Assembly (NCBI GenBank): GCA_002633005.1
Contig: NMRA01000653.1
Span: 1-64,000 of the forward strand
DNA length: 64,000 nucleotides
From: Phoronis australis
Lineage: Eukaryota; Animalia; Phoronida
Direction: 5' to 3'
In this document: in pieces, positions 2,997 through 57,642 of the stretch
Position numbering within the stretch: the first letter of the stretch is position 1
How the letters are laid out: each line of letters opens with the position of its first letter
Notes under the pieces: generated by a model
What the model was told of the DNA's origin: nothing
The model's input: the letters and a program-made list of their open reading frames with translations, nothing else
The model's database searches: none
Made by a program: the position numbers and the translations under genes

Positions 2997-5900
2997 TTAC
3001 TGATCTGCCTTCTTTAGTACATCTCCGTGTCCATCCCAGCATTTTTTCGAGCCATCGCACAACACCACAAGGTACCCTTTCCATTTTTTGTAAGCAAGTG
3101 TTAGGGAGTGCGCATGCCCGTTGTCGATAGTCGTCGTAACAGTTACTCGCTTCCCCGCCTTCAAATCTTTGATGTCGTCAGGTGACAAAGTCAACAGATG
3201 CGAATGCTCACCAGGAGGATCTCTGACAGTCACAGGAAGCTCATAAGTTAGCGAATCCTAGCGGGAAGAAAAATGTGCCAAAATGTGATTCTTGATGAGG
3301 TCAAAGTTTTACAAAGTGCCTGGATACTGTCTAGCAAACCATGTTATGTTGTGGAATTTTGAGTGGCTACTTCCCATCGTCAGTCGACACTCCTGGCCCT
3401 AGCTCAAAGGTGGGACACGTCCTTTCCCTTGACATAAGCTACAGTGTAAATAAACACCAGTAGAGCCCAACCAAACTTCAGTAAACATGGTCAATATTTT
3501 GATTTATTTCAATTAAACAAATTTGATTCTTTCACAACAAAACATCCGTGTTTTTTCACATGACCACAGTAGGATATATAGAAGCCGCTGCTTTAGTTGT
3601 TTTTTCACTTGTATTTCGTGAGTTACGATAATCTAGTTTGTCATTTTTTCTTACGTCAGTTCCGTTAATTTTCTGCCCGGATGTAAAAGTAGGAGCTTTA
3701 TAAAGCATATGGCCGTAGCGAGAAAGATCCATGACAACGTCCTTCAAAGCGTCAATTTCCTTCCATATAGCACTACCTGAAAGAAGCATCAATGGCAAAC
3801 GATTTCATGAACAACTTTTTTGAGAAAATTCTCTTAGACGATATGTTAACCAACAATCATCGTATCAGTTCCTAACTTTATTTAAGAAATAGTGGTAAAA
3901 ATGCACTCATGATCAACCGTAAATCAATGTTCCAAAACAAAAATGTCTCTATCTCTTACAAAGGTTTTTATATATGGTAGTTCAACGTTAATTACAAATT
4001 TAACAGGTGTCTGACGCATTTAGAGCCCAAAACTCTCTGTACTTCAGGTGTGCATCATAACAAACAAACTACACAGTTTGAAATTTTCTTACCTTCTGCG
4101 TGCACCGGCATGATGGGATACCTTGTCCTCAATGAACCCACGCCAGGAATGTTGGGTAACATAGCTCTTGTACCGGCGGCTCTGACAGCTCGCAGGTTAC
4201 CTTTGCGATCCAGCACGCCATATGCGCCACCACGTGTTGTGTCGGCAGGATCTTTCAGAAGCTGGAAGAGTCGCACACACAGACAGGATAGGATTTCACG
4301 TGAGATTTGGAAGGTAATAATAATTTTAGATGCTCTCAGAGCCCTCAGAATAAGCAATAACCTTTATCTGGCAACAGTGCAGGTTGGCACGATCTATATT
4401 ATTTAGAGACTAGTTTAAGAAGCCAAACCACTACGACAGTTACCACTTATGATGTAAACATGTTTAATACAAAACAAAAGTTTCACCTATATCACCGAAA
4501 GGAACTGATAGACTTCGTGGCCAAAAGGAGGCCTCTCATGAGTTTCACCGTGTTTGTCAGTGCTGTAGTGGGGCGTAGGCTTACGTAAACGGAACCAACC
4601 ACCTTTTGGCATGTGTGCGTAGCGCCTACTCACCGTAAGTTACGTTCCGTGCTCAAGGTGATGCGGTGGGCTCTGGGCGCCTACTTACTTCTAATTTTAC
4701 CACTACAGCACTGGTGTTTGTGCATAGGGGGAGCGGCTTTTTGACCTTTCTAGTTTGATGACCAGCAAACGATACTGTACCACATTCACTCTATTACCTC
4801 TTTACCGCTGTAGAACTCGTCTGGGGTGATGATGTGCAGTTTGCTGTGAGTTCCGTTGTAGGCGAGTTCGGGCTTCAACCCCCCATTGCGTCTACCACCG
4901 TTGCTCTTCGGCCCTCCGGCATACACAGTCTCGATGGTCTTAGATTTTTTGCTGTAGACTCCCTTGAAGTAGTACACCAATACTCAAATTTAACGTATAT
5001 ATTAGAATTCCTTAGGAGGAAACTCGTTCCTCGAATCTAGCTTTTATAGACTACTAATTGGTTATGCTTAATCTGTTTGAAATTCCTGTCAATTTGGAGG
5101 TACCGACGACGTTTCAGGTGGTCATTCTTCAGCACAATTGCCTTCCTGCATAAAAAAGATCTCTTAATGGATTGGTTCTACTTGCAAAGAACTTTTGAAT
5201 AAGAAAGTCTTTTAGTGGTATAAAATGCTAATCCAGCAACAGTAATACATAAGAACTGCTTGGAAGGTTTTGGGGTGAAAGTACTGAAAAGAGGCAATTG
5301 ACACAAGGCATTCTGAGAGCTTGACAACCAATTTTTTCGATATTTTCAGTTCTTCGTGTACGGTTTACAAGTTGTAACCATATGCCCGGTGTGCAAAGAT
5401 GCTGTAGCTTATAAACCAAGTTCGCAAACGACACATGGCGAGGTGATACTAAGACTCTCCAACTAGAACTCGATTTTATAACTGTACATGGGATTCAAAC
5501 GCATTCTTCTTTGCAAACCATTGCATATAATCGTGCACACCACCAAACGCACTCTCATCGAGTTTGCATTTAAGGGGAGGGGAGGGGGTAATCGCCGCTG
5601 CTTTGCTGTCAGCGTTAAATTAACAACGGAAGCACTTTGTTGTTTAAAAACATTGCAAGGTCGGGAGGCAGAGAAGAGTATTAGCCAGGATTTTGCCAGT
5701 CAGACATTCGCACCCCCGAAATGTCAAATGGAATAAGGGAGAAGTATAGGGGGTGGGCATGCCCCCCTTGCCACTACGTTGCAACGTACCAGTATGATCA
5801 ACGTAACTAAGCAAAGTATGCAGTTATATGTAACGATTCGCCATCAAGGAAATTCCTACTATCATTGCAGTAATTCCCGGCTGGAATATCACTATGTATA

Positions 5901-14900: not shown

Positions 14901-17900
14901 GTGCAAGAATCTATAACCATATTGCTGTCCTAGCATCGATATTTGTCGGTCTATGAAACCAATTTTTGATATCATCATTGTCTGAATAATTGCTACGACG
15001 TGCGAGCCATAGTCTTGACACCAAACGCCGAAGATGCCTAACGCTAATAATAGTACCAAAGTGATGCCTGAGCATGTCTATAGTTTCTTTTTGCGGCAGC
15101 CCCAAATTTAAAAGATTTCTAACAGATTCATCTTTATCCAAAGTGGAATATTCTTGGTAACAGAAATAAAGCTTATCACGTGACAATAATAGATCTAACT
15201 CTGTTTTTGTTTTTCAGCCAGCAAAACTTTTGTCTAGTAGCACTGCAGTTTTAAGCGGAAAGAGTATTTTTAAAATCACCCCATTAACATCTGACATATT
15301 AACATCATACACGTAAATCTGTCGTGTCGTGATGAATCTAAGTTCTGTCCTTAATCCCAAACGCGTTGAATCTGATGAGTGCAATACGGCCATGTGATAT
15401 TGTTTTCCCTATTCATATCCCGCACTACTTCAACAGTGACCTCTGACATGGAAAGTTCAAAACGTAGGTCAACGTCGACTCGACATCGTTAGCCGGTTCA
15501 ATCATCATACTTTCCGAAATTAGTTTAAGTAATACAATTGCAGCAGTGCAAATGACACTAAACATACAACCAGATCCAAAACGTAACACCTAGAACAAAA
15601 CTGTTAATTATAAGACCCTTCTGTCTAAGTTTTCAATGGGTACATATTTTATCGTCTTTAACTCAGGCGTCGATTCCTCGTATCTAAAATATGAAATATG
15701 GTTGTTATTTAACTATTTTCAGGGAAATATTACAAGTATTGCGAGTTCAATGCAGAGTTATTGTTGTTTTCATGTTTGTTATCTCTTTTCAAGTAATAAA
15801 CCCTTACATTTAAAACTGTTCTTTTACTAGAGAAAACTTTGCAACCTAACGTTTAATTACATACATAAAAGATGTGATTCACCACTTGAACTATTTAAAA
15901 ATCTGCAGAAAAAATGAAAGAAACTAAGGAATTCGAAGGCTAGGGAATAAACACAAAACGTACCCTGATTGACGTAGATGAAGTAATATCCCACTCGACA
16001 TTATTCCGCGATACGAAGAATAATTTGTCGTGGGATATTACTTCATCCACGCCATTCTCGGTACGTTTAGTGTTATTCGTCAAATCATGTTATCTGATCT
16101 GTTGGCAGATGGAAGTTCTAAGCAAAAGCGTTGTCATTGATGTTTTGTTGCAGTAATATTGCTTCCTAACATCTCTACTGATTGTGTGGGTTAAGATTGA
16201 GGATGGCCCTGATTACTTGTCCTGATGATGATGTTTGAGACTTCGAAACATGTTGAAGTTGAATAATATGACTTGCTTTATTATTGTCACTTACTTTTCT
16301 TCGTTGAGACCACAAGCGTTATATCGGGTTTCACGCCAGATAGGATCGCATGTGCACGTTGAAAGGTGAATTATTTATCTTATTACGTTAAATGTTGAAA
16401 CTTTTCTGGTACAACAGCCATTTGAATTATTTGATAAAATGAAATGCACATCAGGGTGTCATGGCTCAGAACAATGGGGTTTTAAGGAGACGCACTTGCG
16501 TAGAATTATTTTTGAAGTACAATGTAAGGAGGAACCGCCAGCTTTATTATTACAGTTTTGTTGGAGTGGTACAAGCTCAACAACATTTCGGTAAGGATGA
16601 CGCCGAAATCTTAGTTTACCTGGAGAACATTTATTATCTGACAGAACTTGCCTGCAGCCCAAATTACATGTATATGCTGTTGTGCAAGAAAATTCGTGAT
16701 CTACATCGTCTCTTCCTTTAACAGATTCAACAGTGAGACACAAGTACATAGGCGGATTTAGGGGGGGGGCCCAGGGGGCCCGGNNNNNNNNNNNNNNNNN
16801 NNNNNNNNNNNNNNNNNNNNNNNNNNNNNNNNNNNNNNNNNNNNNNNNNNNNNNNNNNNNNNNNNNNNNNNNNNNNNNNNNNNNNNNNNNNNNNNNNNNN
16901 NNNNNNNNNNNNNNNNNNNNNNNNNNNNNNNNNNNNNNNNNNNNNNNNNNNNNNNNNNNNNNNNNNNNNNNNNNNNNNNNNNNNNNNNNNNNNNNNNNNN
17001 NNNNNNNNNNNNNNNNNNNNNNNNNNNNNNNNNNNNNNNNNNNNNNNNNNNNNNNNNNNNNNNNNNNNNNNNNNNNNNNNNNNNNNNNNNNNNNNNNNNN
17101 NNNNNNNNNNNNNNNNNNNNNNNNNNNNNNNNNNNNNNNNNNNNNNNNNNNNNNNNNNNNNNNNNNNNNNNNNNNNNNNNNNNNNNNNNNNNNNNNNNNN
17201 NNNNNNNNNNNNNNNNNNNNNNNNNNNNNNNNNNNNNNNNNNNNNNNNNNNNNNNNNNNNNNNNNNNNNNNNNNNNNNNNNNNNNNNNNNNNNNNNNNNN
17301 NNNNNNNNNNNNNNNNNNNNNNNNNNNNNNNNNNNNNNNNNNNNNNNNNNNNNNNNNNNNNNNNNNNNNNNNNNNNNNNNNNNNNNNNNNNNNNNNNNNN
17401 NNNNNNNNNCTATGCGCATCTACAATCGTGGTTCAGTTTGCGCAAATGCTTCCAGCCGGACAAAATGTTGGGCCCCCCCTTGTGATATCCTAGATCCGCC
17501 ACTGAAGTACGCAGCAATTTTAAACTGTTTCCATCAGTTTTTGAGGGCCATTCGCGGGTTTCTGAGTTTTTGTCCTAGTCCAACTGAGGTGACCGGCTCA
17601 AACGTTTTGAACGTTTATTTTTTGTTGCGACGTTTTTTTCATCACCGACGGGCCCCCTTCACTGCCACGTGTCTTGGGGTTGTGGGCCCTCCTGTCCACC
17701 TCCTCTCGACGCCCCTGGCCATGAATTCAGTTTAGTTTGCAACGAATGTTTATTCCAACTAGTTCGAGTATTCGTTGTGAAAACCATGATTTACTAGTTA
17801 AGAACGCTGAGATATGAAAACAGACTGTGTTGATAGAATCGAGATATGTCAAGATAATTACGCCGGGCCTCTCGTGATTCCAAAATAAATAAGATTGGGA

Positions 17901-18857
17901 TCTCGCGGTCCCGAAATAAATATGCCACGATTTCGAGCTCCTGATGTCCCAAGATAATTAAGTCGGAATCTCAAGATCCTGAGATACATAAAAAAGAATG
18001 CGCGATGTCATCTTTGTCATGTCGAAACATTTCCATCTTCGTTCTAATGTCAAGGGGTCAGTTTCACGAACGGTGGCTCGAGAATTAAGACAGAAATTTG
18101 ACCTGACACTCCACACAACTATTTTAAAAGGTAATTATATGTCACTGTTTCAGTGTTATTTAGATTGTTTCTGTAAATGCTTCCAGACTGTGGAACGCTC
18201 ATTACTTGGCTAAACGTTTCTTCAAACCTGCGAAGTGGGGGAGTATGAAATCAAATTTCTTTCTGGGTCCCTAAAGTTAGTTTTAAAAGAAACAAGGCCA
18301 TGGGTTGTGTTCAAAAGATTTTAAACTCTTTATAACAAAATAGGTTATCAATGGAAACGAACTTTTCATACGCATATGCATGAGCGGCGTACCATAGGGG
18401 ACTGGGGGGCTACAACCCTCCCCCAGTCCCCTATCTAGCCCCACTTGTTCAGTGCAGCACCGCCCACGGTCTAGGGAATGAAGTTCTTATACGCACACGC
18501 TTTTTTTTCTATTGAATTTACACTGTATGTAACGAATCGACATAAAACTAAGCAGCTCGTGGTTCTGTTTTCACTTTATTTTCGAGATTTGAAAGAGTAA
18601 AAGGAAAAGCTGTTAGTTTGTACCTATTACTTCAACTAAATTTTTATGCTCAGATAAGTTGGGAATTGTTTTCATAAATAACCTGAGTCGCCCTCTGATC
18701 GTATTCTTTCTTCGATGGCAAGTTGTTGCAGAATCAATTGGCGTGCTAGAGACTTGATGACGTCCGTCTGTTTCTTGTCCACGTCATTCTTGCTTATGGC
18801 CGCCGGTGAGCACATGCCCACCAGAGCAATGACAAATGCCAGGATTGAGAGCGACAT
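2997..18857 (-). CDS. Paralogue A: uncharacterised secreted protein, 12 coding exons, 681 aa, C-terminal HxH/Cys module
   Basis: Exons (minus): 18857-18683, 14314-14061, 12894-12765, 10202-10086, 9368-9095, 8188-8064, 7125-7013, 6078-5938, 4962-4798, 4261-4093, 3776-3655, 3257-2997. All introns are GT-AG and phases are consistent (1,0,1,1,2,1,0,0,0,1,0). Total 2046 nt with no internal stop seen. Signal peptide MSLSILAFVIALVGMCSPA. Every exon has a homologue in copies B and C. Confidence 0.9.
4558..4713. mobile_element. hAT-type MITE (156 bp) in intron 9 of copy A
   Basis: Perfect 14-bp TIR CAGTGCTGTAGTGG...CCACTACAGCACTG with 8-bp TSD GTGTTTGT (4550-4557, 4714-4721). Absent at the paralogous site in copy B (~32180). 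Confidence 0.88.
7466..7974. mobile_element. ~510-bp non-autonomous TIR element specific to copy A
   Basis: Imperfect TIR CATTACGGTGTTTTCCCGTT / AACGGGAAAACGCTGTCATG. The empty site ctatgaaaagt is seen in copy B (~34886). The TSD is not clearly resolved. Confidence 0.6.
9380..10000 (+). mobile_element. Penelope-like element (PLE) reverse-transcriptase fragment, degenerate, antisense in intron 4 of copy A
   Basis: Translates across frameshifts as LTKEHCIAAKQLRDNDDIVIRKSNK..VIMNKKEY, LYGNPKTHKLGYPLRPIISQV, TYEIAKTLDKLIK and LDVESLFTTVPL. These are the PLE RT N-terminal motifs (YGxPKxHK..PLRPIIS; DVxSLFTNVP). Confidence 0.85.
9751..9779. mobile_element. 29-bp palindromic micro-insertion with 7-bp target duplication
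   Basis: CTAGGAACC...GGATTCCTAG flanked by CCCCTAC at 9744-9750 and 9780-9786. Absent in copy B (36661-36676). Confidence 0.6.
14396..14468 (-). mobile_element. tRNA-derived SINE head / tRNA pseudogene (copy A-specific)
   Basis: Minus strand reads GCTCAGTAGCTCAGTAGTGAGAGCA-CTAGA-CCGGCAA-TCTAG-AGATCTGTGTTTCGACTCCCAC. It shows an A box, an anticodon-like stem-loop and a degenerate B box, but a poor acceptor stem. Absent in copy B. Confidence 0.6.
14770..15186 (-). mobile_element. Degenerate N-terminal fragment of an IS3EU-like (integrase-core) transposase in intron 1 of copy A
   Basis: Two frameshifted ORFs give LGLPQKETIDMLRHHFGTIISVRHLRRLVSRLWLARR and GQQYGYRFLH...VKRKTVRIILSAVNAGGVAVQRARRL. 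This resembles the HTH / 'GYR.M...V.RETVR..L..LDP.GV..R..RRL' region preceding the DDE core of such transposases. The catalytic core is absent. Confidence 0.6.
15945..16078. repeat. ~134-bp imperfect palindrome (hairpin) inside a copy-A-specific insertion
   Basis: GAATAAACACAAAACGTACC..GATGAAGTAATATCCCAC..TTATTC pairs with GAATAA..GTGGGATATTACTTCATC..GGTACGTTTAGTGTTATTC. Confidence 0.8.
16747..17504. mobile_element. MITE/DNA transposon with CA(T/G)(A/T)GGCGGAT(T/C)TAG TIRs and 5-bp TSD; interior is an assembly gap
   Basis: Left end CATAGGCGGATTTAGG, right end CCTAGATCCGCCACTG. TSD AAGTA at 16742-16746 and 17505-17509. The empty site gagacac-aagta-cgcagc is in copy B at ~43813-43830. Confidence 0.85.
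16784..17409. other. Assembly gap (N run)
   Basis: Run of n characters. Confidence 0.99.
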
Positions 18858-19512
18858 CTACAATTGAAACCATTAATATGGGAGCATTACATGCGTGAAA
18901 TCTGGAAAAAGCTACTTTTTAAAATCTCGTTTTGTATGTCGTTTGATAAAAAATAAGGAGGTTATTTGAAAGTCAAATGCGATAAACTAACTCCTAATTT
19001 TACTGAAGGCGATGCAAAATTTCGTATTTGTGGAAAGCAAAAACGGAAACGGTCGGTTAAAGTCCTATAAAAACATGCTCCCGCAGTTGCCAAGAAAACA
19101 AGCTCTTCTCTCACCTTTCGCCCTCCGAATGATAGCTCTCCAACATGTTCCCTGCAATAAAGCGTCATGCGAGCGTGATCCCACACAATCGCAGCCGCCC
19201 ATCATAACACTGAATTTTGATAATTGTGATTAAATTTCAGGGGCGTCGCCGTCATACATGCAAAGTCACACGTGCCTACTACAGAATTGGGCGTGGCGAG
19301 GACTCGAAAAAATTCGAGACTGCGCGTTCTTTCAGATGCTGTAGGCCAACTATAACTCTAGCCTGCTCACATGCAAACTAAGTTTCTTTTCCCTTTGGCT
19401 TCGAGTTGTAGACTGATTTAATAATTTTAAACCTTGGACTGATTTCGTCAAACACGGGGCTCATCCGTCCGTACATTCCGTGTTTAGTCTAAAGACAATG
19501 AACTATTGTGAC

Positions 19513-22455: not shown

Positions 22456-22485
22456 GCCCGGCTTATGACTGACGGCTTACATGTA

Positions 22486-37151: not shown

Positions 37152-37201
<50 letters not shown>

Positions 37202-43200: not shown

Positions 43201-45104
43201 TGACAAAAGCGTAGTCATTGATGTTTTGTTGCAGCTACGATGCGTCATGAGAGCTCTACTGACTGTGTGGGTCAAGACTGGAGACGACCTTGATTATCAT
43301 GAATGAAACATTGAAATATCTTGCTGTTGAAAAATCTCCTTGTTCGTATTGTTACTGTCATTTACTTTTCTTCGTTGAGACCATAAGCGTTATGCCCGGT
43401 TTCACGCCAGATCGGATCGCATTTGCTCGTACAAACGTTGAAAGTTAAGTCTTTTGTCTTATTGCGTTAAATGTTGAAAAAATTCCAGTGCAACTGCCAT
43501 TTGAATTATTTGATAAAATGAACTGCCCATCAGTGTCTCATGGTCCAAAGAATGGGGTTTTAAGGAGGCGCATTTGCTTCAAATTATTTTTGGAGTACAG
43601 TATGAGGAGGTCCGGCCATCTTTTATTATTATTATTAGTTTTGCTGGAGCGGTGCCGGCTCAACTACTTTTCGGTAAAGATGACGTCGAAATATTAGTTT
43701 ACCTGGAGAACATTTATTTTCTTGTACAACTTGCCTGCAGCCCATATTATATGCTGTTGTACAAGAAAGATTCTTGATCTACTTCGTCTGTTCCTTTAAC
43801 AGATTCAACAGTGAGACACAAGTACGCAGCAATTTTAAACTGTTTCCATTAAAGTTTGAGGGCCACTCGCGGGTTTCTGAGTTTTTGTCCAATTCCAACT
43901 GAGGCTGACCGGCCCACAGGTCTTTTTCTTTTATTTTTTGTTGCGACGTTTTTTTTTGCTTTTTTTTTAATCACCGAAAGACCCCCTTCGTTGTGTACCC
44001 TCCTGTCCACATCCTTTCGACGCAACGAATTTTTATCCCAAGAAGTTCGAGTATTCGTTGTGAAAACCATGATTTACTAGATAAGACCGGTAGGGATTTA
44101 AAAACAGACAGTGTTGATAGGCATGTCAAGATAAGTAAGCGAGGTCTCTCGCGGTTCCGAAATAAATAAACAACGATTTCGAGATACTGATATGCCGAGA
44201 TAATTAAGTCGGAATCTCAAGATCCTGGGATAATTAAAAAAAGAATGCGCGATGTCATCTTTGTCTTGTCGAAACATTTCCATCTTGGTTCAAGTGTCAT
44301 GGGGCCAGTTTCACGAACGGTGGCACGAGACTTATGACCGAACTTTGATCTTACTCTCACACAACTATTCTAAAAGGTAATTATATGTCACCTGAAAAAG
44401 TGTAAGTATGTTAAAATGTGCCCAGTGTTATTGAGATCGTTTTTGTGAATGGTTCCAGACAGTGGGACGCTCATTACTTGGCTAAACTTTTGTTCAAAAA
44501 CTGCCAACTGGGGGCGTATAAGAACAAATTTTTGTCTGGTTCCCTAAGTTAGTTTTCATGAAACATCACCATGGGTTGTGTTCATAAGATTTTAAACTCT
44601 TGATAACAAAAGAGGTTATCAATGGAACCGAAGTTTTTATACGCATATGCATTGGCGGCACACCATAAGGGATTGGGGGGCCATACCCCTCCACTTTTTT
44701 TAGTTCTGCACCGCTCATGATCTATGAAAACGAAGTTCTTGTACGTACATGCTTTTTATCGCCACTGCATTGATGTAACGATTAAACATAAACCTAAGCA
44801 GCACGTGGTTCTGTTTTTATTTTCCTTTCGCGATACGAAAGTGTAAAAGGAACAGCCGTTAGTTTGTACCTATTACTTCACCTAAAATTTTTATGCTCAG
44901 ATAAGTTGGGAATTGTTTTCATAAATAACCTGAGTCGCCCTCTGATCGTATTCTTTCTTCGATGGCAAGTTGTTGCAGAATCAATTGGCGTGCTAGAGAC
45001 TTGATGACGTCCGTCTGTTTCTTGTCCACGTCATTCTTGCTTATGGCCGCCGGTGAGCACATGCCCACCAGAGCAATGACAACTGCCAGGATTGAGAGCG
45101 ACAT
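30486..45104 (-). CDS. Paralogue B: uncharacterised secreted protein, 12 coding exons, 680 aa
   Basis: Exons (minus): 45104-44930, 42252-41999, 40643-40514, 37908-37792, 36290-36017, 35103-34979, 34537-34425, 33474-33337, 32438-32274, 31877-31709, 31395-31274, 30746-30486. All introns are GT-AG with the same phases as A. Total 2043 nt; exon 8 is one codon shorter than in A. Confidence 0.9.
36302..37110 (+). mobile_element. Penelope-like element RT fragment, antisense in intron 4 of copy B (longer than in A)
   Basis: ORF 36418-36921 contains LYGNHKTHKPGYPLSAILSQ...LDVASLFTNVHL. It continues in another frame as DGKLYLQTNDVSMGSPLGPFFADFYMCNLE...YCR*VDDIF, i.e. the catalytic YVDD with the Tyr codon changed to TAA. 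Confidence 0.88.
37138..37202. repeat. (CA)n(TA)n microsatellite
   Basis: Directly visible at the 3' end of the PLE fragment. Confidence 0.95.
42560..42960 (-). mobile_element. IS3EU-like transposase remnant in intron 1 of copy B
   Basis: LFNLGLSQKE...RHRFGIIIS and VSRLGLARRSSY..DVIGFIDQQISMSGQQYGYRYMHQKC; paralogous to 14770-15186. Confidence 0.6.
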
Positions 45105-45771
45105 CTACAATCGAAACCATTAATATGGGATAAAAATATGCGTGAAATCAGGAAAAATCTACTTTTTAAAATCTCATTCATTATGTCGCTTGATCAAAGA
45201 AAAACTACGGATGTTATTTTTAAGTCAAATTGCGATAAACTGCATGTAACTCCTCATTTTACTGAAGGCGGAGCAAAATTTCGTATTCTTGGAAAACAAA
45301 AACGGAAACTAAATCAAGGCAGGTTAAAGTTATACAAAAACGTATTCCCGCAGTTGCCGAGAACACAAGCACTTCTCTCACCTTTCGCCTTCCGAATGAT
45401 AGCTCTCCAACATGTTCCCTGCAATAAAGCGTCACGTGAGCGTGATCCCACACTAATCGCAGCCGCCCATCATAACACTGAGTTTTGATAATTGTGATTA
45501 AATTTCAGGGGCGTCGCCGTCATACATGCAAAGAAGCACGTGCCTATTACAGAATTGGGCGAGGCGAGAAAAATTCGAGACTGCGCGTTCTCTCAGATGC
45601 TGTAGGCTAGCTATAACTCTAGCCTGCTCGCAAGCAGACTAATTTTTTCCGTTTGGCTTCTAGTTGTAGAATGATTTACTAATTGAAAACCTTAGACAGA
45701 TTTCGTGAAACACGGGGCTTATCCGTCCGTACATTCCGTGTTTAGTCAAAAGACAATTAACTATTCGCGAC

Positions 45772-45826
45772 ACTTACTTGTAAGAACTGGTTCCTAGCAC
45801 GTAGAATTTGCTCAAGTGTTATATAT
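45772..45826 (-). promoter_or_regulatory. Putative core promoter and short non-coding first exon of copy B
   Basis: TATATAA (45825-45819), Inr-like CCAGTT and donor GTAAGT (45777-45772). About 43 bp are identical to the copy-A block. Confidence 0.5.
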
Positions 45827-47298
45827 GCCTAGTTATTCTCAATATTTAATAAAATGTTCCTACTTAATATCATCCGTGAGTGTTAACATTATTCAGCGAA
45901 TTAAAATTCGCTGCCATAAAGAATGGGATCTTGTCTGCAGATAAAGTTCAATTTGTGCATGCACATGTATGTGTACATGTACACATACGCGTGTGAGATT
46001 TTCTTCATATTTGTCAATAAAAGATTTAAGACACGTCTAATAATCAGCATGTTGGCACCATCATTGTTTTCGTTTTCTCTACTACCATTACGCTCGCCAT
46101 TATCGAGTAAAGTTAGTCCTAATCCAAACGTAACCACATCGGAACGCATGCGCCGTGAGAACTGACATCTGGTCACGTGGCTTATATAAACTGTCAAAGA
46201 TAAACTATCACGACCTACGCCTACAGTAGGATTATATATCCAGGTAAGGTTGGGTTTGTATTTGATGAATTGTAAGTTTAGCAAAAGTTTTGAACAATAA
46301 CAATGCTGTTGACTTCCATTTGAATCTCAGTGCACAAAGGTGCTGAAAGTGCCTTACACAATGTATAAAATTGTACACATGATTAAGACTGATGATTTAA
46401 CCTCTCCAAAGGCAGTCTATAGTCGAATTTGGAAATTTAAGATTGTGATGCGTCGATGATATACGCTCCTTTCAAGGCTTTCAAAAAATTCTACCAAACA
46501 TCGGTGAATGTATTTTCCTACCCTTGTTCACTACAAGTCTCAGTAGTTTCAAATCACTTTCACTGACGAAACTTACGATTTAAAAAAATAGTGCTCTGTG
46601 CTCACTTTCTGCAGAAGTAAGACTGTAGACAATATCTTCCAAAGGCGTAAAGTAAAAGCCTGAAAAAACTAAGCTCACGTATTCGCTAATTGTATGCATG
46701 TCCTGTAAGACCTGGTTACATTTGACTGCGGTACCAAGTAATACCTGCGACAGATAGGATCATCTCACAATGGGATGACACGTACGCGACACAAGAACAT
46801 GGCCGGGTGGACAATTGTTTCCCCTTTGAATGTCCATAGCTCAAAGTTTAGATTTTTCGCAATTTTGTGAAAATGTCACTTCCGCCAATAAAGTTTTACT
46901 TCTTGCAAGAGTTTATTTTTATTCCGTTTATTTTTGTTTTCGTCTTTCATCGTGTGTTGTTGAATTTCAAGAGATATGAAATGAATCTAATTTGTGCAGA
47001 CTGATACCCTCATGTTTTCAAACAAAAATGTTTTAACACAACGAGACAGTGGGGTATAACCGAAACCTAAAATGGAATCGAAGCGACATAGAGCTCCATT
47101 TCTGGGCTCGTTTGCATAAAAGTTGGGTAGCAGCAATGACAACGCATTGGCTTACGCATCACGTGTCTGAACAATATACTAATTGCCGCCTCGCAACAAT
47201 TTATTCAGGGGATACGTTTTGAAGTTTCTTGCATCCCAAACGGGGCAGATGAACTTTTTCTCTTTCATTATACCGCCCTTGACTACCATCGTCTAAAA

Positions 47299-47334
47299 CA
47301 AAGTGTCTATCTAAATGACGCAAATGACGTTAAC
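47299..47334. promoter_or_regulatory. Tandem bZIP (CRE/ATF-like) sites TGACGCAA-A-TGACGTTA in the B/C divergent intergenic region
   Basis: CAAAGTGTCTATCTAAATGACGCAAATGACGTTAAC is identical in both duplicate units (also at 20993-21028) while the flanks carry substitutions and indels. Function is inferred. Confidence 0.35.
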
Positions 47335-47722
47335 TGACACAACTTTAAGAAACTATATTTTAAGTTACATTTCGCCCTGTTTAGCTGTCTAAAAATAATA
47401 TCGTATTGGGCATTGAATATTAATAGAACCAGTCTCATAATGTTCCTTGTAGTGAAGATTCCATTCCGTTACAATCATAAACGGTTAAACTGTCGGTGTC
47501 CAAACAAAACTTTATCGGGGATAGCTAAACCTGAAATTGTGAATGGTGCATGTATTGATTACCTGTGGGTTGAGTTCATAGGAATGAGAATCCTGTCACA
47601 GTAAGGAATGTGATGAGACCAATTTTATAAGAGTAAGTACATGTAAAGGGTTTAATTCCATTTTTGTCTTCAGTCAGGCTGGAATACAGCTTTACATTCT
47701 TCTAATTTCGTATCGCATTTAG

Positions 47723-50700
47723 ATGACGGTCCCATTGGCTCTTCTTGTCGCCCTTGTGGTCGTAGTGTCGTCTACGACCGCACAGAATGCTGGGAATTTC
47801 TCGAAGACGGGTGTGATCAAATCTCTAGCCAGACAAATCATCTTACAGCAACTTTACATAGAGGAACGCATCCGTACTGAAGGGGATTCGGGTGAGAATT
47901 TAGAACCATACGTCTGCCAATGGTTTGTTACAAACACGGTGGAAGTTGTCTTTCTTACGATTTGATTCCTTTTAACTTTAGCAGTTATGTCCGTGTGTTT
48001 TCTTAAGTTAATCATTCCCGTTGTGCCATCACCCGCTGCAGCAGTAATGACTGGGACGTTTTATTTATATTTCTTCAAGGAAGACAGACAGGTGCCACCT
48101 CGACACTGCCAACGTAGTTACCCAACTGTTACCAAGAAATTCCGTGAGACCTCGGGAAATTTGCTAAACGTCTGCTTGTTATTTTGTATAGGCCTGAAAC
48201 AGACACGTCTTGGAAGATCTGGTACACGGACATATTACGGCAACACGTGGGTTGGGAGCAACATTGCTTCCATGCACAACCATGCCAACAATATTCGCAC
48301 AGTGGGACTCGGCGAGTTCATTGCCGTCTTAAATGGCGTCGAATTCAGAACAAGACACAATGACTACGGACTGCGCATGCCCAGCATCACTAGCTCCGCC
48401 TACGGTGCTACGACACCTGTGCCTTTCCCAGAGGTTCCCAAAGCGGTAATACAACCAGGTCTTACGGATTTCCCAATACTCATTTTTCAAAATAAACGTA
48501 GTGAAATGTAATAACATGTAATACTGTGCCAACAGTATAATTATTCCGGCCAGTGAACTAAAGTTAATGATCTTTGGCTCAAAATCCAAACAGTAGGGTA
48601 GGTCGATCCAACGCCTGTAGGCGCTGGTATCAAAGAATTTCAAACAGGACGATGTATGTGCTAAATATTCATTTTACCTAAATTTTTGGATGAGATCATC
48701 GGTTTTCAGTTGTGCCCAGATATACATGTTATTGGTACACTTAATTCAGACCATTTTGTATAGGCCTACAGCGTTACGTTAGGCGACTTTCCAAAATCGT
48801 CATTTTGCCATTGCCTAGTCAGTCCATTTCATCGTGATCATCATTGCCGTCATCCCCAATGCTCTTATCAGCGTTAATAAAAGAAAGGTTTTGTAGGATC
48901 TCTGCGAAACTTTCCTGGTACCAAACATTCCTTTTAGGTTCTTGATAAACCGACCGTGGCCGAGCAAATTGCGGAAATGCGAAAGTGGTTCAAAGCTTGG
49001 AGGGACCAAGATTACAGCATTAGAGATTACAGAAAGCACTTCACCCCAGTACTCGTGTTCCTTGAGGGTAAGAAGATGTAATCAGCCGAGCTTTTATTAG
49101 AATAAAATTCGTATGCATTCCTGGTTCACTGGTACACGCAAGAAGCTTAATTGGATTGTGGGATATCTGCAATGGATTGCAGGACACGGATCTTCCTAGT
49201 GGAATGACATCAACAAATGAAAGCAGTACACTTACACTTACATACTGCATAATAAGACGAGGGAAATGTATATTCCACGTGAAACGAAAACCAATTTGTT
49301 CTGATTTTGCGTTTGGCAGACGAAAATTCAAATTCTGAAAAGATGATAACCACTAAGTTTGAGTTGGTAAATTATTGGACAAAATACGCTGAATTGGCTC
49401 CAGTGGCCAAACGGTCAGATCTGTAACAACTGTTGTGTAGACAGTTGTTCTAGTAATGTTGAAAAGTTTAAAAGACTTAGTTGCGCCGTGTGTTGATACC
49501 TCGTTGTTCTCATTCTACACAAGTAGATACATGTATTTCCGTGGCATCAAGTGACGTTTTTCAGTGTTGTTCTCTAAAATGACCCATCTCTCCAACGAAT
49601 TTTGGGTTTCAGTTTTCAAGCCTTTGTTTTTCAACATTTCATCAATCACTATACGAAACTACTGTATAGTGTTTGAAACCTCATCACAGTTGTTGCTAAC
49701 ATTCTCTATTTACATATTTACGTGATTCCTGCGTTTCGGCAAAATTTAACTCATCATTCTCAAGGAGTTCACCAAATCCAGGGTCACATGTAATAAAATC
49801 AACTGCACCAAAAAACCACGTGTAAAGCAGCCACATTTAAAGGTCAAATCTATGCCCAAAGAGTGAGCTCAACCGAACAAGGTTGCCTTTCAGCGAAGTC
49901 CTAGCATGCATGTAGATCCACAAATATGGCAAGGCTCTCCTTATCCAAATCTACTGTATTTACATCACTGAGAATGAAGAAATTGATTTTCGTAGAAACG
50001 TTGGATTTGTGTAAGTATAGAATGTTAGCAGCAATTGTTGGGGTTTCTACTGTTTATTTGACCCAAAACCAACATCGTCAAGAAACTAGAAGTGATTATA
50101 CTGTTCTTATTCAGAACTTGTACCGTAATATTGACACATGAACCTGTTCGTCGTCCTCCAGATTTGTAGCCATTTTCTTAACTTCAGGGGCGTGGACACT
50201 TTCAAAAGGAAAGATAGAAGAGTCTTTCAAAAGCGACCGCCATTTTCTGGACGCCAAGAGTTGGTACGACATGCAAGAAAAGATCAGATACACTTCCTAT
50301 TCCGGTTGGTATGGGTTTTGTGAGGAAACACTACAGCTGGAGACGTAATTACCAGAATGAGAGCTTTTGATTTCACTTTCAACCTAGTGTGACAAAATAC
50401 GCCAGACATTTGAATCTCTTGTTATGCTTACCTCTTTGTTTTCGACTTTGTAACGAATTTCCAAGAAACATTCACGGTTGCGTTCCGTAGACGTAAAAAA
50501 ACCTCGCGATTATAGCAAGTGTGAGCACATGTTTCGATTCTAATTCATGGAGATATATTGTGTAGGGTTGCGCGATTTCTCGTTCATGCGCGTGTCTTCA
50601 GGCTACGGAACGCAGCCCTGTGATACATATGCAACAGGTTATCCGTTCCTTGTTCAGGAAAGCTGACCTCCGCATGGGCGGCGCAGCACTGAAAAAAGTG

Positions 50701-53700
50701 GGTGGCTAAAGCCCCCTCAGCCCCCTGTGGTGAACCGCCAATACACCATTTGCGGCGTAGCACTGAAGAAAGTGGAGGGGCTATAGCTCCCCCCCCCCNN
50801 NNNNNNNNNNNNNNNNNNNNNNNCCCCCCCCCCCCCACCGCCTCCTATATTGCGCCGCCCATGCTCTGTATCTATAAACGTTCATGCAAGGTTTACTTTG
50901 ATATGATTAAAACCACTTGACTGTTTTCAAAAATCTTATTTTAGGGCGCAAAAGTGGAAAAGAAAATTTTGCATACCTCCCAACCGCATTGTGGGACGTA
51001 ACCGACGACGGTACCCCCGTATACGCGCAGTGGAACTACCGTATCCTGTGCCAACCTCTGAAAGACGACATCCCGTTGAACCGACTCCGATTGGTCAACG
51101 ATTTTGGTGCTCGCATGGCTCTTCGTAACTCCGTGGCCAAGCACGTGCATTCTCGTGCTGCCCGCTTTCAAATAAACCCCTTCAACAAACCGTGGGATTC
51201 GTCATCTGACGGAACCGTTCAGTACGTAATGAAAAATGTTTTATCATAAGTGAAGGGATGTCCTGTGACCCTTGGTTTAAGCAAAGGAAAGTTGGTCTTG
51301 ACACTTGGTGAGAAACGGGCCACATTATCTGAAAAGGATACTAAACCGTGTTTTGGCCTATTGACATACATGGGCAACCGTAAGACACATTTAAGTTCAA
51401 AGTGAATGCTCTGTTATCCTCGTCAACACTTAAAGCACGCTTGAAACTCCTCGTAAAAGCTGCTAAGTAGATTACCGTGACTAACGCTTGAGTCGATATA
51501 TGTGTGGGGAAAGATTAACCCACGTCGAACCATGCGATTCACGTTGAGACAGTGGGTAAATGTTTTAGGAGAAGAATATTTCAAATCTCGAGAGAACCAC
51601 CAGTTGCACAACCGCAGGTAGCGCAACTAATTTCGAGTGACGTCATTAAACCAGTATTGACAACCGTGGCGGCCACTTTGATGGTGCCTCAAGAGAAATT
51701 CGAAAATAAAAATTGAATGATGCAAACTAAAATCGGTTTATTTTGAAAAAAGAATGTCATGTTGATAGAGCAGGGAGTATGCTTTGACTAGTTTGGATTG
51801 GTGTTGAAACTCGTCAACCAAGTTTTCAACTAAAATGAAACGAAAACGGTACCTTAATGTGGTCAACGCCTAAGAAGCAGAAGACAATATGGTTAGAGGG
51901 CGGTAACCAATTTACGCATTGAGTTATGGAGGTTGTCTTCTGTGAACACGATCGCAATGTGACGTTCTCACTAGGTATGGGTTCCTCGACAAGCTGATGG
52001 GCCAGGTACCGGGTAAGGATAACGCCATGGCTAACTTGACTGACAACGCAATGGGTGATCCCGCCTATCCCCTTGATTCGAATATTGATCGACCTCTAAA
52101 TGTGGGTGAGTGCGTCTGTGTGTAAGAAATAACATCCTACGACCTGCGGCAGTTATTGATATTGTTAACAGGCTTTTTAATAGTTTTCCTGCTGTATAAG
52201 TTTGTATTTAATTTTTTTTTGTGGGCGTAAATCCAGTTTTCATATTAAAAGCTATGTATAAAATTATACATGTATTTCTTAAGAATACATTTAAGACAGT
52301 TAATATCTTCAGTTAAAAAGCCGCCCTTAATTTGTTGCTGGGAATCAAGATTTGCTCAGAGATGAATTGACACAATTTCCCAGTGTTTAAGTCAGACGAT
52401 CGTCATAATTCGTAAATATATACATCTGTGGAGAAGGCTCAGAGAAACTAATGTTTTCATCCAATGGACATGATTTGATATAAGAGGGTAAGTATTAGCG
52501 AGATATAAACTTGCTTTTTTATAATCTGTCCCTTGCCGGTAGTTGTAGGACTGGACGAGGCTCAAAATATTCGTTCTCGTTTTGTCTCTTTTCATTGAAT
52601 ATAACATTCATTTCCGAGTTACGACAGCGCCTTTTTACAGGTTACTACCACCGCCGGTTCCGATCTTACCAAAAAGGAGCGATGGGGCTCAGGTCTCGCC
52701 ACCGTGGTTACGCCGATGAGAATATGTGGGCTGCCATGACAACTCAGCCCAAAGTATTAGTCGAAAATTTGTGATTGTCGGTCACACGGGACACCTTTAT
52801 CAGAATTTGAACTGTATTAATTCGTTTTTATTATTTTAACCTAGCCACCTCAGCTCCATCTTCCACTGAACAAAAAATCATTTTGGAACTCCCATCTTTC
52901 TACAAGAACTTTGTTTTGTAGCTGGAAGTTTTTACTGTTATTTGTCTTGTTTCATAAACTCTGACTATTCATGTCTTAACAAGCGTTCCCCATTGCAAAA
53001 TTAAAGTAACATTAAATAACACGGTTTAATGCAACTTAATATGGCCGCTGTCATGAGTGACAGCTTAGTCATGTACTATGTGTACTCACTCAGCTGCCGC
53101 CATATGCAATGAAGTTTCGACGGAAACAGCGCCCTCTTTTTGATAGTAAAGTAAGGCAAACACGAACAGGGCTGAGTTACGAAATGTTAACAAAAAGTCA
53201 TTTTAGTTCAACTGCCGAATCTCATCTTGAATTATAAATTGGTGGATGTTTAAGGAAGAGTAGCTTTAAAGTTATTTAGTAGTGGGTGTTTTAAATGCAC
53301 TCTTTCTCCGTAGGTGGCACCGACGAAGTACAGGGAATGCAAACGGGTCAATAAAAACGAAGTGTGCACGGAGACCGAGCAGAGATGGTCCTACGCCATC
53401 CCGATGGAGATTATTTACCTGACACCACTCAATGCATGGAATCCTTACGACATTGAATATAAAGTAAGCTGCACTCGTGTCGTTATCGTTTTTATTTCAT
53501 GTAAATTTCATTGTTTTTTTTTTCGTAAAAATGAAAAGGTCCTATTTTGGTAGCCCCTAGTGCAAAAACGGACCAATAATCCTACCAGCGTTTTGCAGAA
53601 CATTGCATAGTGGATAGTATATAGTGTCATGTGAATCAGATCAGACATTTTCCTAGTCGCTCCATACACATTTGCAGCCTACCGTTTATTTTCATGATTC

Positions 53701-56700
53701 AATATTCTAGCATACACTGTAGTCGTCAGGTCACTTTCAATTGGAGTCATTTTGTTAGTAAGGCGAGAAAGGTCGCGACATCAATCTTTCTCTGCGCGCC
53801 TCTGAATAAATCTGTCAGCTGTGCAATTCAGATCACACATTGAAATTTATCTCAATTAATAGACGTGAATGTATCCACGTACATTGTAATGTTTTTAATT
53901 TTCAGGGTAACAAGGGAAAACTCGCTCAGAGAACTGTTTATGCCGGAGGTCGTAATGGAAAATTTGAACCAGACAAGGCGTACAACGGCACAACAACCAA
54001 ACTTTACGCCATTACCCCTGATGACTTTTTCAGCGGAAGAGAGGTGCGTATTTAAAGATTTTGGAAACGCAGCACGACCACGGGGCTCTTTGTTTTTTTC
54101 GCGTGTATTTTTGTAACAAAATTGCATGTTTTTGCGCAAATGGGCTTTATCAACTCGTCATTTCTTTTGAATTATAGTCCAAGTTAATGCCTGATATTGT
54201 TATCGTCTCCAGGTGAAGCCCACTTCATATATGTTTGTAGAACGTCTCTTTATCTGCCTGTCTATCCGTCATAACGCAGCATGCTTTTTTAAAGATAACA
54301 TATCACGTTCTCAAAGCTGAGGTTTTTCACGAGCTCATTTCATTGATTAGCTGGAGAAAGATAAAGCCGACACGACGCGATCAGGGGCTTACGGGGTACT
54401 GGACAGAAAGGGAAATGTACGTGCAGTCCGGGCGTCGGGCACGCGTATCACCCTGCCGAAAATCCCCGGTGTCGGCGTGCTGAGAACGAGATACCCAATC
54501 ATGCCGGTGCATGTAGAAGGTAGGGCACTATGACTTTAAACCAATGAGCCTCTGTTTGAAATAATGCGCATTTTTTCAAAGACTGTAAGTGATTTTCATA
54601 AAAGCGCCTACGTTTGAGGTTCTTGTACATGCGAGAGCGGCTTTCTCTTGTATACGTGCACGATTTTAACTGGGTAGCCTAATAGTAGTGTTTTACCCAC
54701 TTTTAATACGTTTCATTAACATTTACTTTACACATCTCCTAAACGTCCACCATGATTCTTCTATGTGTACAGCAAGTTTCACTGCCATAAAATTAGTATA
54801 GTTCGTTTACACAAACTTCGTTAAAAACTCGACTAGACTTTTTGTTAGCGAGCTTGATACTGGTACGTTCGTAATTTCGGAACAGTCTCCTTTCTTCTGG
54901 TGTACAGGTATGAAGTAAATGACCGAGAGACATAACAAACAAGTAAAAACAGTAGCTATATTTCGTGACTTCATGTCACATCACCAGGCGGAATGAACAT
55001 ATACAGAGCGAAATTAGCAGTAAAATACACGTGACAGCGAGAAGAGGGGCATACAAGCAGAGAGTGTGAATGTAACACACGGTAGGAAGCCCGCAGCCCT
55101 ATCGAAACATAGCCAGCGTGCGATACATGTACACACCTGTGAGCTGTTCATTCAATACAGATTTTTCGTGTGGCTTGCGATACACACCTGTGAGCTGTTC
55201 ATTCAACACAAAAAGTCTAGTCTTGTCTTTATAGAAGTTTGCCATACTATTTTAGAATTATGCTCATCAGTGTTTGATCACATACATGTATATGGCCATT
55301 CATCTAATCCTGGATATTGAGACAGCTTTTGGAATACAAACCTGTAGGAGCACTAAATACGCTCGTGTACGACAATGAAGGAACACCGCCACAGAAAACA
55401 TTCGCTTAATAAGTTATTCAAACACTAATTAAGATGGAAATTCACAGATTGTGAAACTGAAAGACGTTCACATACATGTAAACTTTTTATCCGTATTCTG
55501 TTGGGGTCTGTTGTACCAACAATAATAGCATTTGGATTAAGATATACAGTCGTGAGGTGCTCTTGAGTCCCTAGTAAGTCACGGTTATACTACGTTCTGC
55601 GGAAATGATAGTGCATTCGATAATCAACAAACTTGAAAATACTGAAAATAGTCATCGATTTTGCTTTTATCATTGAAAATGGACGCTTGAACAACAAACT
55701 GTGATTTTGCTTCCCTGAATACCAACGAGTAAACAATTTTTTACTGTTATGTAGGACACTATAAGAAAAGTTGAATTCGAAACTTCGTATATCAAAAATG
55801 GCCTATTGGATTAATATGATACATTCAGATACTGTGTTTTATCCATTGTAATCCAAAACGCTGTTAGTGGTTGTTTTTCAAACGTATCGCTTTTGCCGAG
55901 GGCTGACAAAAATTAGACTCATATGATTTTCATGAAAACACCATGAAGTTGCGTAAAAACGAAAGCGAGTAGATATCTATTAGAAAATTGTAAAACTATT
56001 TTTGAGCTCTCATCTTGAAAAATTTGTATCAAGTAAAGCTTAATCAAGTTATTGGTACCATGCTTTTGTTATCAAAGAACCAATATTTTTGCTGAATGTT
56101 ACTTGGCAATGTGACCTAATTAATGTCAGATTGGTAAAAGTCAAAAAGCAAACTGGACAGTTTTTCTAATTTCAGAAGATGTGTATTTTAGCGGATTTCA
56201 AAGCAATAGCGTTGTACAATTTTGACTAAATGCGTAGAGTTGTCAATAACGTCCTACATAAACATAACTCTCGAACATTATTGAACCACTTTAAGACTTT
56301 GTTTTCTTCTATTTCCGTTTACGCTTTTATATTGGCAAATTTCTGAAACATCCAAATATAATACGACACCTAGAAATCAACTGTTTCATCAGACCTATTT
56401 TGCTTTCATGGTTAGATCTAAATAAGAATTACGTTGCTCATTTTGGTGCTTGAAAATTTTCATGTTGAATATTTTTGCGAAAAAAAACTAATGAGATATA
56501 CCATACAGAACAAAAAGCCAAGTTAACTTACACATTGTGGTTGGAAGACATTGGAGAAATTGAGTAGTAAAATAAAATGAAATTATTCCAAACAGTCTCT
56601 AATTGTGTTATTTTAAGGCAATGCCATGTGGAAAGAATTAGACGCTTTGAAAGATATTGTGATGGACATGGAGAAATATAGTCACATGTTGATTCGACCA

Positions 56701-57642
56701 CCATTCTCCGCAAACCAGGTTAACCACACAGAACAGGTCGGTACGATGACCAGCTTGCTACAACAGTTTTTCTGACGTGCTACCTACCTTAAAGGCAGTG
56801 TTTTCTCAGAAACCATGCTTCAAAAACACACGTCTTATAAGTGGACGAAAAGTGAATAGTAGCCGTCATTGAATTTTTAAAATCGATGCATCATAAGAGA
56901 AATTGGCGAATAGGTTTTCTTCAGCATCGTGGGTAAGCCTCGACCATTAATGTGTGAATCGATTAAGACGGGTTAGTCACAGTCAGTACGTCTTAGGCTC
57001 GCTTAGGCGTTGGAGTAACAAAACCACACACGTTTGCGTAAGCATTTTCTCGTGCAATTTAAAGTCATGGTATGCTCATTAAACTACTTGAAATTAGGCT
57101 TGCGTACATCTCGTTTCCGCCTAATCTCGGCTTTTGTCTAAGGCTTGGAGTTCATAATATTTTAGAGACTGAGGAAGAAATGATTTTTAATTTCCAAAAT
57201 AAGTCAGGAAGCACTTACAAATTTAAGAGATTTATACGTCCTGACCGATCTTGTTCATAGGCGGAGTATTAAACTGTCTCAATATTTTAATCATATAATT
57301 ACTGATGTTGACTGTTGTTTACCCGAAATCACGGTCAAGCTCTCGTTCTTTGGGACCTAATTTGTTATATTTTATCCCCAGGGTTCCGTGACTCTTGAAG
57401 TACCAGTGACCGTAAGAGACCCGCCAGGTGAGCACACGCATATGTTCAGCCTGTCGCCAAATCAAGTGAAACAGCTCAAGGGAGGGAATTTAGTTACCGT
57501 GGCAACCACCATTGACAACGGGCATGCACACTCCATACAAATTGCTTGGAACAATCGGAGGAAGGTCTTCGCCATTGTAAAGTGTGACGGTCAGCGGTCG
57601 TGCTGGGACGGTCACGGTGCAACTCTGACCGTTACAAACTAG
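47723..57642 (+). CDS. Paralogue C: uncharacterised secreted protein, 12 coding exons, 675 aa, head-to-head with B
   Basis: Exons (plus): 47723-47891, 48192-48445, 48938-49067, 50188-50304, 50945-51221, 51975-52105, 52641-52753, 53314-53463, 53906-54043, 54351-54519, 56618-56736, 57382-57642. All introns are GT-AG with intron positions and phases identical to A/B. Total 2028 nt. Signal peptide MTVPLALLVALVVVVSSTTA. AATAAA at ~57715 and ~57974. Confidence 0.92.
50673..50863. mobile_element. MITE with CATGGGCGGCGCA TIRs and near-perfect 5-bp TSD, intron 4 of C
   Basis: CATGGGCGGCGCA...TGCGCCGCCCATG flanked by CTCCG / CTCTG. A second left-end-like copy lies inside at ~50747. Decayed relatives occur at ~18379-18468 and ~44650-44720. 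Contains a short N gap. Confidence 0.75.

Follow-up and report, generated by a model that had tools for sequence, protein, structure and literature searches.

Three clustered genes of Phoronis australis encode predicted secreted proteins with a core homologous to the distal domain of phage tail fibres

A 64-kb stretch of Phoronis australis DNA on contig NMRA01000653.1 ("the window" below means this whole stretch, and copy counts refer to it only) contains a cluster of three related genes, here called A, B and C. A preliminary description had read them as intact paralogues of a secreted protein of unrecognised type. What kind of protein is this, and where did it come from? Taken by itself, the cluster is a local expansion of an ordinary kind, and the interest of the locus rests on the family to which it belongs and on the origin of that family.

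A Foldseek search of BFVD matched protein gp431 of Bacillus phage G (G3MAH2, AEO93689.1; 1013 amino acids, aa) at E 2.5e-30 (probability 1.0, TM score 0.59, 588 columns), and the next match was at E 3.7e-3. By tblastn gp431 was matched at E 1e-29, with 25% identity over residues 45-581, and the predicted fold and motifs were shared across about 520 residues. The gp431 gene comes after large BNR-repeat proteins. A search of plasmids detected TMO_RS29830, a "phage tail protein" of Tistrella mobilis pTM2 (E 7e-46, 32% identity), in which the N-terminus was the tail-collar fibre domain PF12571 and the core was the C-terminal part of the fibre. The gene order was gpV, PAAR, gpW, gpJ, gpI, TMO_RS29830, two hypotheticals, sheath, tube, tape measure and a gpD-like gene, and a capsid gene was absent from the 30 kb shown. 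This P2-like tail cluster (L079:15348-29241), with a Mor-like activator ahead of it, is a candidate tailocin.

Scans of prokaryotes and viruses were led by an alignment of the Tistrella protein; animal-biased patterns (25 and 2 stretches) had missed all relatives. Ten loci were found in GTDB, all within P2-like tail modules with a gpI-family gene upstream, and one of them (L093) was a full P2-like prophage including the capsid. PF12571 was fused to the core in four, the core gene came immediately after gpI in two (near-identical proteins, one on a 4-kb contig), and in the remaining four, from Pseudoalteromonas, it lay a few genes past gpI and a free PF12571 gene. PF12571 and the core occurred together in five prokaryotic homologues (Tistrella, Ca. 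Rhodobacter oscarellae, Dechloromonas, Hydrogenophilales and Oceanospirillaceae). IMG/VR contained four loci, three Tistrella-like and phage G. A, B and C matched 10/10 prokaryotic proteins in blastp (24-35% identity), and a hidden Markov model (HMM) of the core detected these 10 at E 1e-43 to 9e-105. The phage-side sources were Pseudomonadota, Aquificota and a Bacillus phage, some of them non-marine. We conclude that the ~520-aa core of the window proteins and the distal domain of phage tail fibres are homologous.

Some features of the tail loci were recorded in passing. The gene after the fibre, which has a short helical N-terminus, came in two or more unrelated types (L079:21456-22265, L085:11623-12435, L088:11407-12270, L090:11818-12774 and L093:11643-12572), as expected for exchangeable side fibres, and neither the window nor the eukaryotic family matched the genes downstream of the fibre. 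In the Pseudoalteromonas loci (L089-L092) gpI and tail-collar genes were repeated, several fibre genes were present, and L090 was also near siphophage-type tail genes. Near-identical tail loci (L087, L088) were present in metagenome-assembled genomes labelled Thermococcus and Thermovibrio, and the 4-kb archaeal (Thermococcus) assignment is probably mis-binned.

On the eukaryotic side, one exon of C used as query retrieved full-length relatives of about 690 aa with 42-54% identity to A or C. A profile collected 725 proteins when clustered at 90%, and 1,382 clusters when the threshold was 50% identity, the composition of the latter being known for 150 listed representatives. Named members came from stony corals, anemones, an octocoral, jellyfish, Lingula, Owenia, siboglinid worms, bivalves and gastropods, and all were "uncharacterized". 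By their names they included vent and seep animals, and no vertebrate or arthropod name was among the matches listed. The patchy distribution over marine invertebrates and bacteria envisaged beforehand was real, and its prokaryotic members were phage and prophage tail proteins, which had not been foreseen. Long unnamed members, presumably eukaryotic, appeared protist-like and carried cupredoxin, EGF, ShK, PAN or collagen modules (Pfam). A collagen repeat stood immediately before the core in P0243, the Pfam collagen repeat being found in 1/38 long representatives scanned, and long coiled-coil-like stalks were seen by eye in many homologues. L057 and P0247 had PF00127 fused to the core, with scores exceeding the curated cut-off; a phytocyanin-like motif occurred in 6/150 representatives (simple pattern), with one further weak PF02298 match, and DOMON-like N-termini were seen by eye in two members. 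The plastocyanin- or phytocyanin-like fusions (L057:91-4164, L050:79-3303, P0247, P0245 and P0257) were protist-like, some of them membrane-anchored, and no cupredoxin fusion was seen in named animals or phages. One Owenia member had an extra N-terminal lectin-like domain, below cut-off.

Conservation and trees were determined with 34 eukaryote-side and 10 phage-side cores, L087 and L091 being left out as near-copies. Forty-nine positions were kept in at least 94% of the eukaryote-side and at least 9/10 of the phage-side sequences. They included (C numbering) R51, R62, H85, H87, E98, N104, R111, H112, N113, D114, E184, S200, R202, H203, K226, E230, N231, R256, D385, E429, D500, R538 and R540; seven Arg were thus kept from phages to animals. 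In keeping with the His motifs noticed in the preliminary description, four His were invariant in the core and five in a separate C-terminal domain. No Pfam, PHROG or NCBIfam model matched the core, in agreement with the earlier failure to recognise a named domain, and the five-His domain was likewise unmatched.

A whole-protein AlphaFold2 model of an Owenia homologue (692 aa, 80 sequences) had a predicted local distance difference test score (pLDDT) of 80 and a predicted TM score (pTM) of 0.72. It consisted of a helix (2-49), a large mixed core and the C-terminal domain, and residues 45-108, holding the HxH, were of low confidence and poorly ordered in this monomer. In alignments of phage fibres the R-x-x-G-x-S-G motif came after the fibre coiled coil. 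The C-terminal domain of the window folded alone with pLDDT 97.6, and its five His were invariant in 29/29 sequences. This domain was detected in 72/105 full-core representatives and missing in the other 33. In four Pseudoalteromonas fibres it was inserted inside the core, three being found by HMM (E 4e-4 to 6e-4, library size set to 1e6) and the fourth by alignment; it was missing in 7/10 phage-side proteins tested. No stand-alone relative of 46-172 aa was found among 166 candidates.

Searches of PDB sequences with phmmer and hmmsearch gave nothing significant. With Foldseek neither the whole model nor the His domain matched a PDB structure at E ≤ 0.001, and VIA-align gave no Z ≥ 5 among 48,161 chains with either model, nor among 988 re-aligned chains. 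These PDB fold searches used the whole-protein and His-domain models, not the core alone, and neither exclude a known fold, such as the beta-helix, SGNH or propeller folds of phage depolymerases and polysaccharide-modifying enzymes, nor show a new one. ESM Atlas gave no usable match for P0015, whose Atlas model is poor. A trimer prediction with three copies of homologue residues 22-345, run without the alignment supplied for it, scored 0.04 with an uncertain fold and is evidence neither way.

The layout of the cluster is given in Table 1. Joining the exons by coordinates gave open frames without internal stop for all three genes, each with 12 coding exons and 11 GT-AG introns in the common phase string 1,0,1,1,2,1,0,0,0,1,0. 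The motifs quoted in the preliminary description occurred three times each in a motif search of the window, all where expected. Its central claim, three complete paralogues with the same intron positions and phases and no disabling mutation, was confirmed by splicing and by the junction reads described below. The three were intact as claimed, and a fourth element, a dead C-type exon 1, had been missed. This remnant is head-to-head with A, has a frameshift just past the ATG and is without further exons; it appears to be the former head-to-head partner of A. By blastn the block 43820-48062 was repeated at 17505-21750 with 82% identity. The repeat includes the dead C exon 1. The simplest reading is a tandem duplication of an A/B-C pair with loss of the second C, and the cluster appears to be a duplicated head-to-head pair. 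The spacer between B and C is probably a shared bidirectional promoter region.

Table 1. Positions and strands of features in the window
Feature	Position	Strand	Remarks
Gene A, 681 aa	18857..2997	minus	Spliced frame; junction reads include A-specific forms
A coding exons 1-6	18857-18683, 14314-14061, 12894-12765, 10202-10086, 9368-9095, 8188-8064	minus	
A coding exons 7-12	7125-7013, 6078-5938, 4962-4798, 4261-4093, 3776-3655, 3257-2997	minus	
Assembly gap, 626 N	16784-17409		Inside A intron 1
Gene B, 680 aa	45104..30486	minus	Dominant transcript of the A/B pair; exon 1 and 5' untranslated region directly covered by reads
B coding exons 1-6	45104-44930, 42252-41999, 40643-40514, 37908-37792, 36290-36017, 35103-34979	minus	
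B coding exons 7-12	34537-34425, 33474-33337, 32438-32274, 31877-31709, 31395-31274, 30746-30486	minus	
Gene C, 675 aa	47723..57642	plus	Spliced frame; 11/11 junctions in RNA runs X2 and X3
C coding exons 1-6	47723-47891, 48192-48445, 48938-49067, 50188-50304, 50945-51221, 51975-52105	plus	
C coding exons 7-12	52641-52753, 53314-53463, 53906-54043, 54351-54519, 56618-56736, 57382-57642	plus	
C exon 1	47723-47891	plus	Leader, then predicted long helix ending in R-x-x-G-x-S-G, start of core
C exon 2	48192-48445	plus	H85-x-H87 and R111-H112-N113-D114, kept from phages to animals
C exons 4-5	50188-51221	plus	S200-x-R202-H203, K226, E230-N231 and R256; candidate active-site residues with E184
C exon 12	57382-57642	plus	Domain of its own, 86 aa; two Cys, and five invariant His in the arrangement HxH, HxH, H
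Pseudogene remnant, C-type exon 1	21430-21595	plus	Matched by tblastn (90%, 50 aa) and aligned by blastn
B-C spacer	45105..47722		2.6 kb between divergent start codons; duplicated at about 18858-21429 (A to remnant)
SAM-domain frame	1017-1673	plus	PF00536, E 9e-8
Repeat of part of the SAM-frame stretch	22139-22456		Just beyond the C-type remnant
Broken frames	23500-26600	minus	Decayed DNA transposon by eye, no Pfam match; between the A block and B
204-aa frame	36307-36918	plus	In B intron 4; reverse-transcriptase-type by eye, no Pfam match
Dpy-30 motif frame	59470-59952	minus	PF05186, E 6e-7; probably an exon of an unrelated neighbouring gene
86-bp tandem repeat	62513-62901		4.5 copies

Protein identity was 94.9% for A and B (645/680), 67.1% for A and C (448/668) and 68.2% for B and C (455/667). 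The coding sequences of A and B were 95.8% identical (86 differences in 2043), with a synonymous distance (dS) of 0.11. The Nei-Gojobori ratio of non-synonymous to synonymous distances (dN/dS) was 0.21 for A-B and about 0.07, with saturated dS, for A-C; neither is near 1, which shows purifying selection and supports the proposal that the genes are maintained. All 11 introns of A aligned with those of B at 78-93%, and alignment of C introns with those of A or B was absent in 11/11, as had been noticed by eye. The N-termini of A, B and C were hydrophobic (Kyte-Doolittle 11-residue maximum 3.1-3.6), and no membrane span was found beyond the leader (19-residue maximum 0.85). The three proteins are therefore predicted to be secreted, as they had looked at first reading, the basis being a hydropathy scan rather than a dedicated signal-peptide predictor. 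In trees they formed a lineage-specific clade of their own (support 1.0; A with C 100), with a weak placement near lophotrochozoan sequences. An ancient family-wide split of A/B from C was rejected, since the window proteins group together. The idea that A/B and C are two subtypes acting together gained support from no result.

Four runs were mapped, three raw RNA runs from one study (X2, X3 and X4) and one contig set. Junctions of C were seen at 11/11 sites with 28-98 reads in X2 and 28-96 in X3. X4, of similar read number, gave the last C junction alone (4 reads), and 8/11 were spanned in the contig run. A/B-type junctions were likewise seen at 11/11 sites in X2 and X3, and by one read (mapped on A) in X4. 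The splice models proposed earlier thus agree with the RNA at every junction. A, B and C were on together in X2 and X3 and almost off in X4, as the suggested co-regulation would have it, in these three runs of one study. The majority of reads mapping to A derived from B. The letters by which A and B differ were checked at 34 of the 40 best-supported difference rows (of 857), six rows that were untranslated-region, intronic or contig-only being dropped, and the B letter was present at 30 of the 34, the A/B-diagnostic sites. At these 30 sites the A letter made up 13-26% of X2 reads at 20, 5-10% at four, none at four and 56-61% at two. A-specific junction forms had 60/39 and 44/29 reads. From the A-letter share and these junction forms, A contributes about one fifth of the expression of the A/B pair.

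These data bear on whether A and B might be two alleles set in tandem by the assembly, which would leave two genes instead of three. Such an arrangement is very improbable. It would fit the near-identity of the two coding sequences, the N gap within intron 1 of A and the 4/30 diagnostic sites without any A-letter read, but dS is 0.11 and the introns are only 78-93% identical, the partner of B is an intact gene and that of A a dead remnant, and A-type reads amount to about one fifth rather than half. Two sites divide the B-type reads roughly into halves and would imply at least three haplotypes, a pattern that pooled samples could mimic.

Phage tail fibres are trimers, and their tips touch the host surface; HxH iron sites are present in T4 gp37 and R-pyocin fibres. 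We tentatively regard A, B and C as coiled-coil-led trimers with a predicted metal-binding head that would bind, and probably chemically attack, a microbial surface polymer. The likeliest role, put forward with similar reserve, would lie at epithelial or mucus surfaces, in binding and modifying polymers of microbial surfaces or matrix. In the animal protein the secretion leader and short helix would take the place of the baseplate anchor, and in other eukaryotes long coiled coils or collagen would fill that position. Three chains would form a trimer, because fibres are trimeric, the core is preceded by collagen or a coiled coil, and order is poor around the HxH in the monomer model. By analogy with gp37 and R-pyocin, the HxH (H85/H87) may be a metal site on the three-fold axis. 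The conserved RHND, E184, SxRH and KxxxEN could form a catalytic pocket for an anionic polymer, and the conservation of polar residues across phages and animals would make chemistry likelier than a variable receptor tip. As to origin, one ancient phage-to-eukaryote transfer may have been followed by intron gain and local duplication. Coral-like genomic contigs contained uninterrupted, intronless frames, and 1/11 window intron positions recurred among 16 intron-bearing loci mapped with a simple script; intronless coral-like frames and lineage-specific introns favour an intronless ancestor and a single old transfer in this direction. In its full form, a phage fibre enzyme domesticated once by early marine eukaryotes and since retained, over hundreds of millions of years, as a metal-dependent protein, weapon or sensor, for recognising and remodelling bacterial surfaces, the proposal is rather unlikely.

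Several results weigh against this account of function and origin. The gp431 gene is distant from the main tail genes. Several loci have a separate variable downstream gene resembling a real receptor-binding protein, so that the core may be accessory. Net charge was not conserved, 23/36 named and window proteins being positive and 9/10 phage-side cores negative; a general cationic character of the family was rejected by this comparison. The cupredoxin-like fusions suggest a redox role instead. The tree was unrooted and two-sided (approximate likelihood-ratio support, SH-aLRT, 100; quick search), with eukaryotes not nested within a phage subgroup, and is compatible with transfer in either direction. 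The core is common in eukaryotes and rare in prokaryotes: a strict pattern scan of 185,579 genomes gave the 10 GTDB loci, and one phage was found in 50,697 records. Capture by phages would fit this distribution as well. In such a reverse history, an old eukaryotic surface protein would have been taken up by phages whose fibres then stuck to animal mucus or biofilm, and its function in animals need not involve microbes. Several of the bacterial hosts, among them Ca. Rhodobacter oscarellae, Tistrella and Pseudoalteromonas, come from marine invertebrate surfaces, as this history would have it. We nevertheless consider it doubtful, because phage-side sequences are the more divergent (median core identity 0.34 among eight, two Pseudoalteromonas being left out, against 0.50 within the eukaryote side and 0.30 between the sides), because the phage side extends over Pseudomonadota, Aquificota, a Bacillus phage and non-marine sources, and because eukaryotic intron positions are lineage-specific. 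Finally, gp431 is entered as "Hypothetical, unknown function" in supplement 2 of PMC12484599.

Other functions were weighed against the binding and attack of microbial polymers. The proteins could be structural components of extracellular matrix or mucus, likened to C1q or collagen C-terminal domains, in which the core serves as a head for trimerisation or assembly and is cross-linked or stabilised through the His sites, with no catalysis and no microbial target. The joining of collagen to the core in P0243, the coiled-coil stalks and an expression that is strong and limited to certain samples are all consistent with this, as is the single mention of the Lingula member's accession in a preprint on collagen-associated domains (bioRxiv, below). 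The Pfam collagen repeat is nevertheless rare among the long representatives, and the invariant Arg, His, Glu, Asn and Lys common to phages would seem to exceed the needs of a scaffold, which makes a purely structural role unlikely. The invariant His (four in the core, five in the C-terminal domain), together with the vent and seep animals among the members, might point to secreted sequestration or delivery of Cu, Zn or Fe for nutritional immunity, detoxification or supply to extracellular enzymes. This we consider distinctly unlikely, as the five-His domain is missing from about a third of full-core representatives and from most phage-side proteins, and a metal store would have no obvious use at a fibre tip. 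A copper-dependent enzyme, supplied with electrons by a cupredoxin partner and acting oxidatively on an extracellular polymer, would account for the PF00127 fusions, the phytocyanin-like motifs and the DOMON-like N-termini, but the fusions are limited to long protist-like proteins which also gather EGF, ShK, PAN and other promiscuous modules, and such an enzyme is improbable. The biomineralisation, adhesive and metal-transport roles suggested at first were supported by no result.

In the literature searched, by identifiers, motifs and topic, neither the family nor its phage link was described, although proteomic and single-cell supplements may hold members. The Lingula accession XP_013383323 occurs once in bioRxiv 10.1101/2021.10.08.463732, on collagens and collagen-associated domains, and the domain may already be noted there. 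The family is conserved, multi-copy and strongly regulated in reef corals, molluscs, annelids and brachiopods, yet has been left without annotation, and the fibre-tip link gives it a testable function from two sides, bacterial and animal. If this link holds, a large family joins the short list of domains shared by phages and animals, fibre-tip enzymes of a new class are indicated, and invertebrates gain a candidate effector for handling surface microbes. If domestication is also true, the proteins would represent an arm of innate immunity or symbiont control in invertebrates that derives from phages and is so far undescribed, secreted from multi-gene families of corals, molluscs, annelids, brachiopods and protists and built on a fold without a solved relative.

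Among known systems, the shoulder domain of TssK and of the receptor-binding protein of lactococcal phage 1358 gave weak VIA-align rows (Z 3.1-4.5, root-mean-square deviation (rmsd) 4.2-7.1, 143-183 residues aligned), such as 4l92 (Z 4.5, rmsd 4.2, 143 aligned), IglD (Z 3.4, rmsd 5.9, 156) and TssK (Z 3.3, rmsd 6.2, 176). These proteins have a helix followed by a beta-sandwich; the Z values are in the chance range and cover about a quarter of the model, and the likeness is a lead only. Animal proteins that share fibre-associated domains include MYRF, with the intramolecular chaperone of tailspikes (Peptidase_S74), and ALK/LTK, with a glycine-rich domain. Like the window proteins, these have a fibre-associated module common to phage tails and animals. 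They differ in the domains concerned and in that the shared module of the window proteins extends over nearly the whole length; Peptidase_S74 (ICA domain, Ser-Lys autocleavage) had no Pfam match in the family members scanned. Collectins, ficolins and C1q-domain proteins are secreted stalk-and-head recognition proteins and, as in this family, consist of a leader, a coiled-coil or collagen stalk and a globular head. The head here is about 520 aa with enzyme-like invariant residues, and no C-type lectin, fibrinogen or C1q domain was found in the core by Pfam. Phage G gp431 shares the core and differs by an additional ILEI-like domain ahead of it (E 2e-5, below the curated cut-off) and by lacking the five-His domain. 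The closest architecture is that of fibres of the P2 gpH or R-pyocin type, in which the core is the C-terminal part and a coiled coil is followed by a head, as in the window proteins. Judged by the Pfam, PHROG and NCBIfam models, this shared head appears not to be a described fibre tip. The gpH-type fibres carry the PF12571 collar and are encoded after gpJ and gpI in a tail module, whereas the exons of the window and the animal homologues have a hydrophobic leader in place of the collar, and A, B and C are spliced eukaryotic genes.

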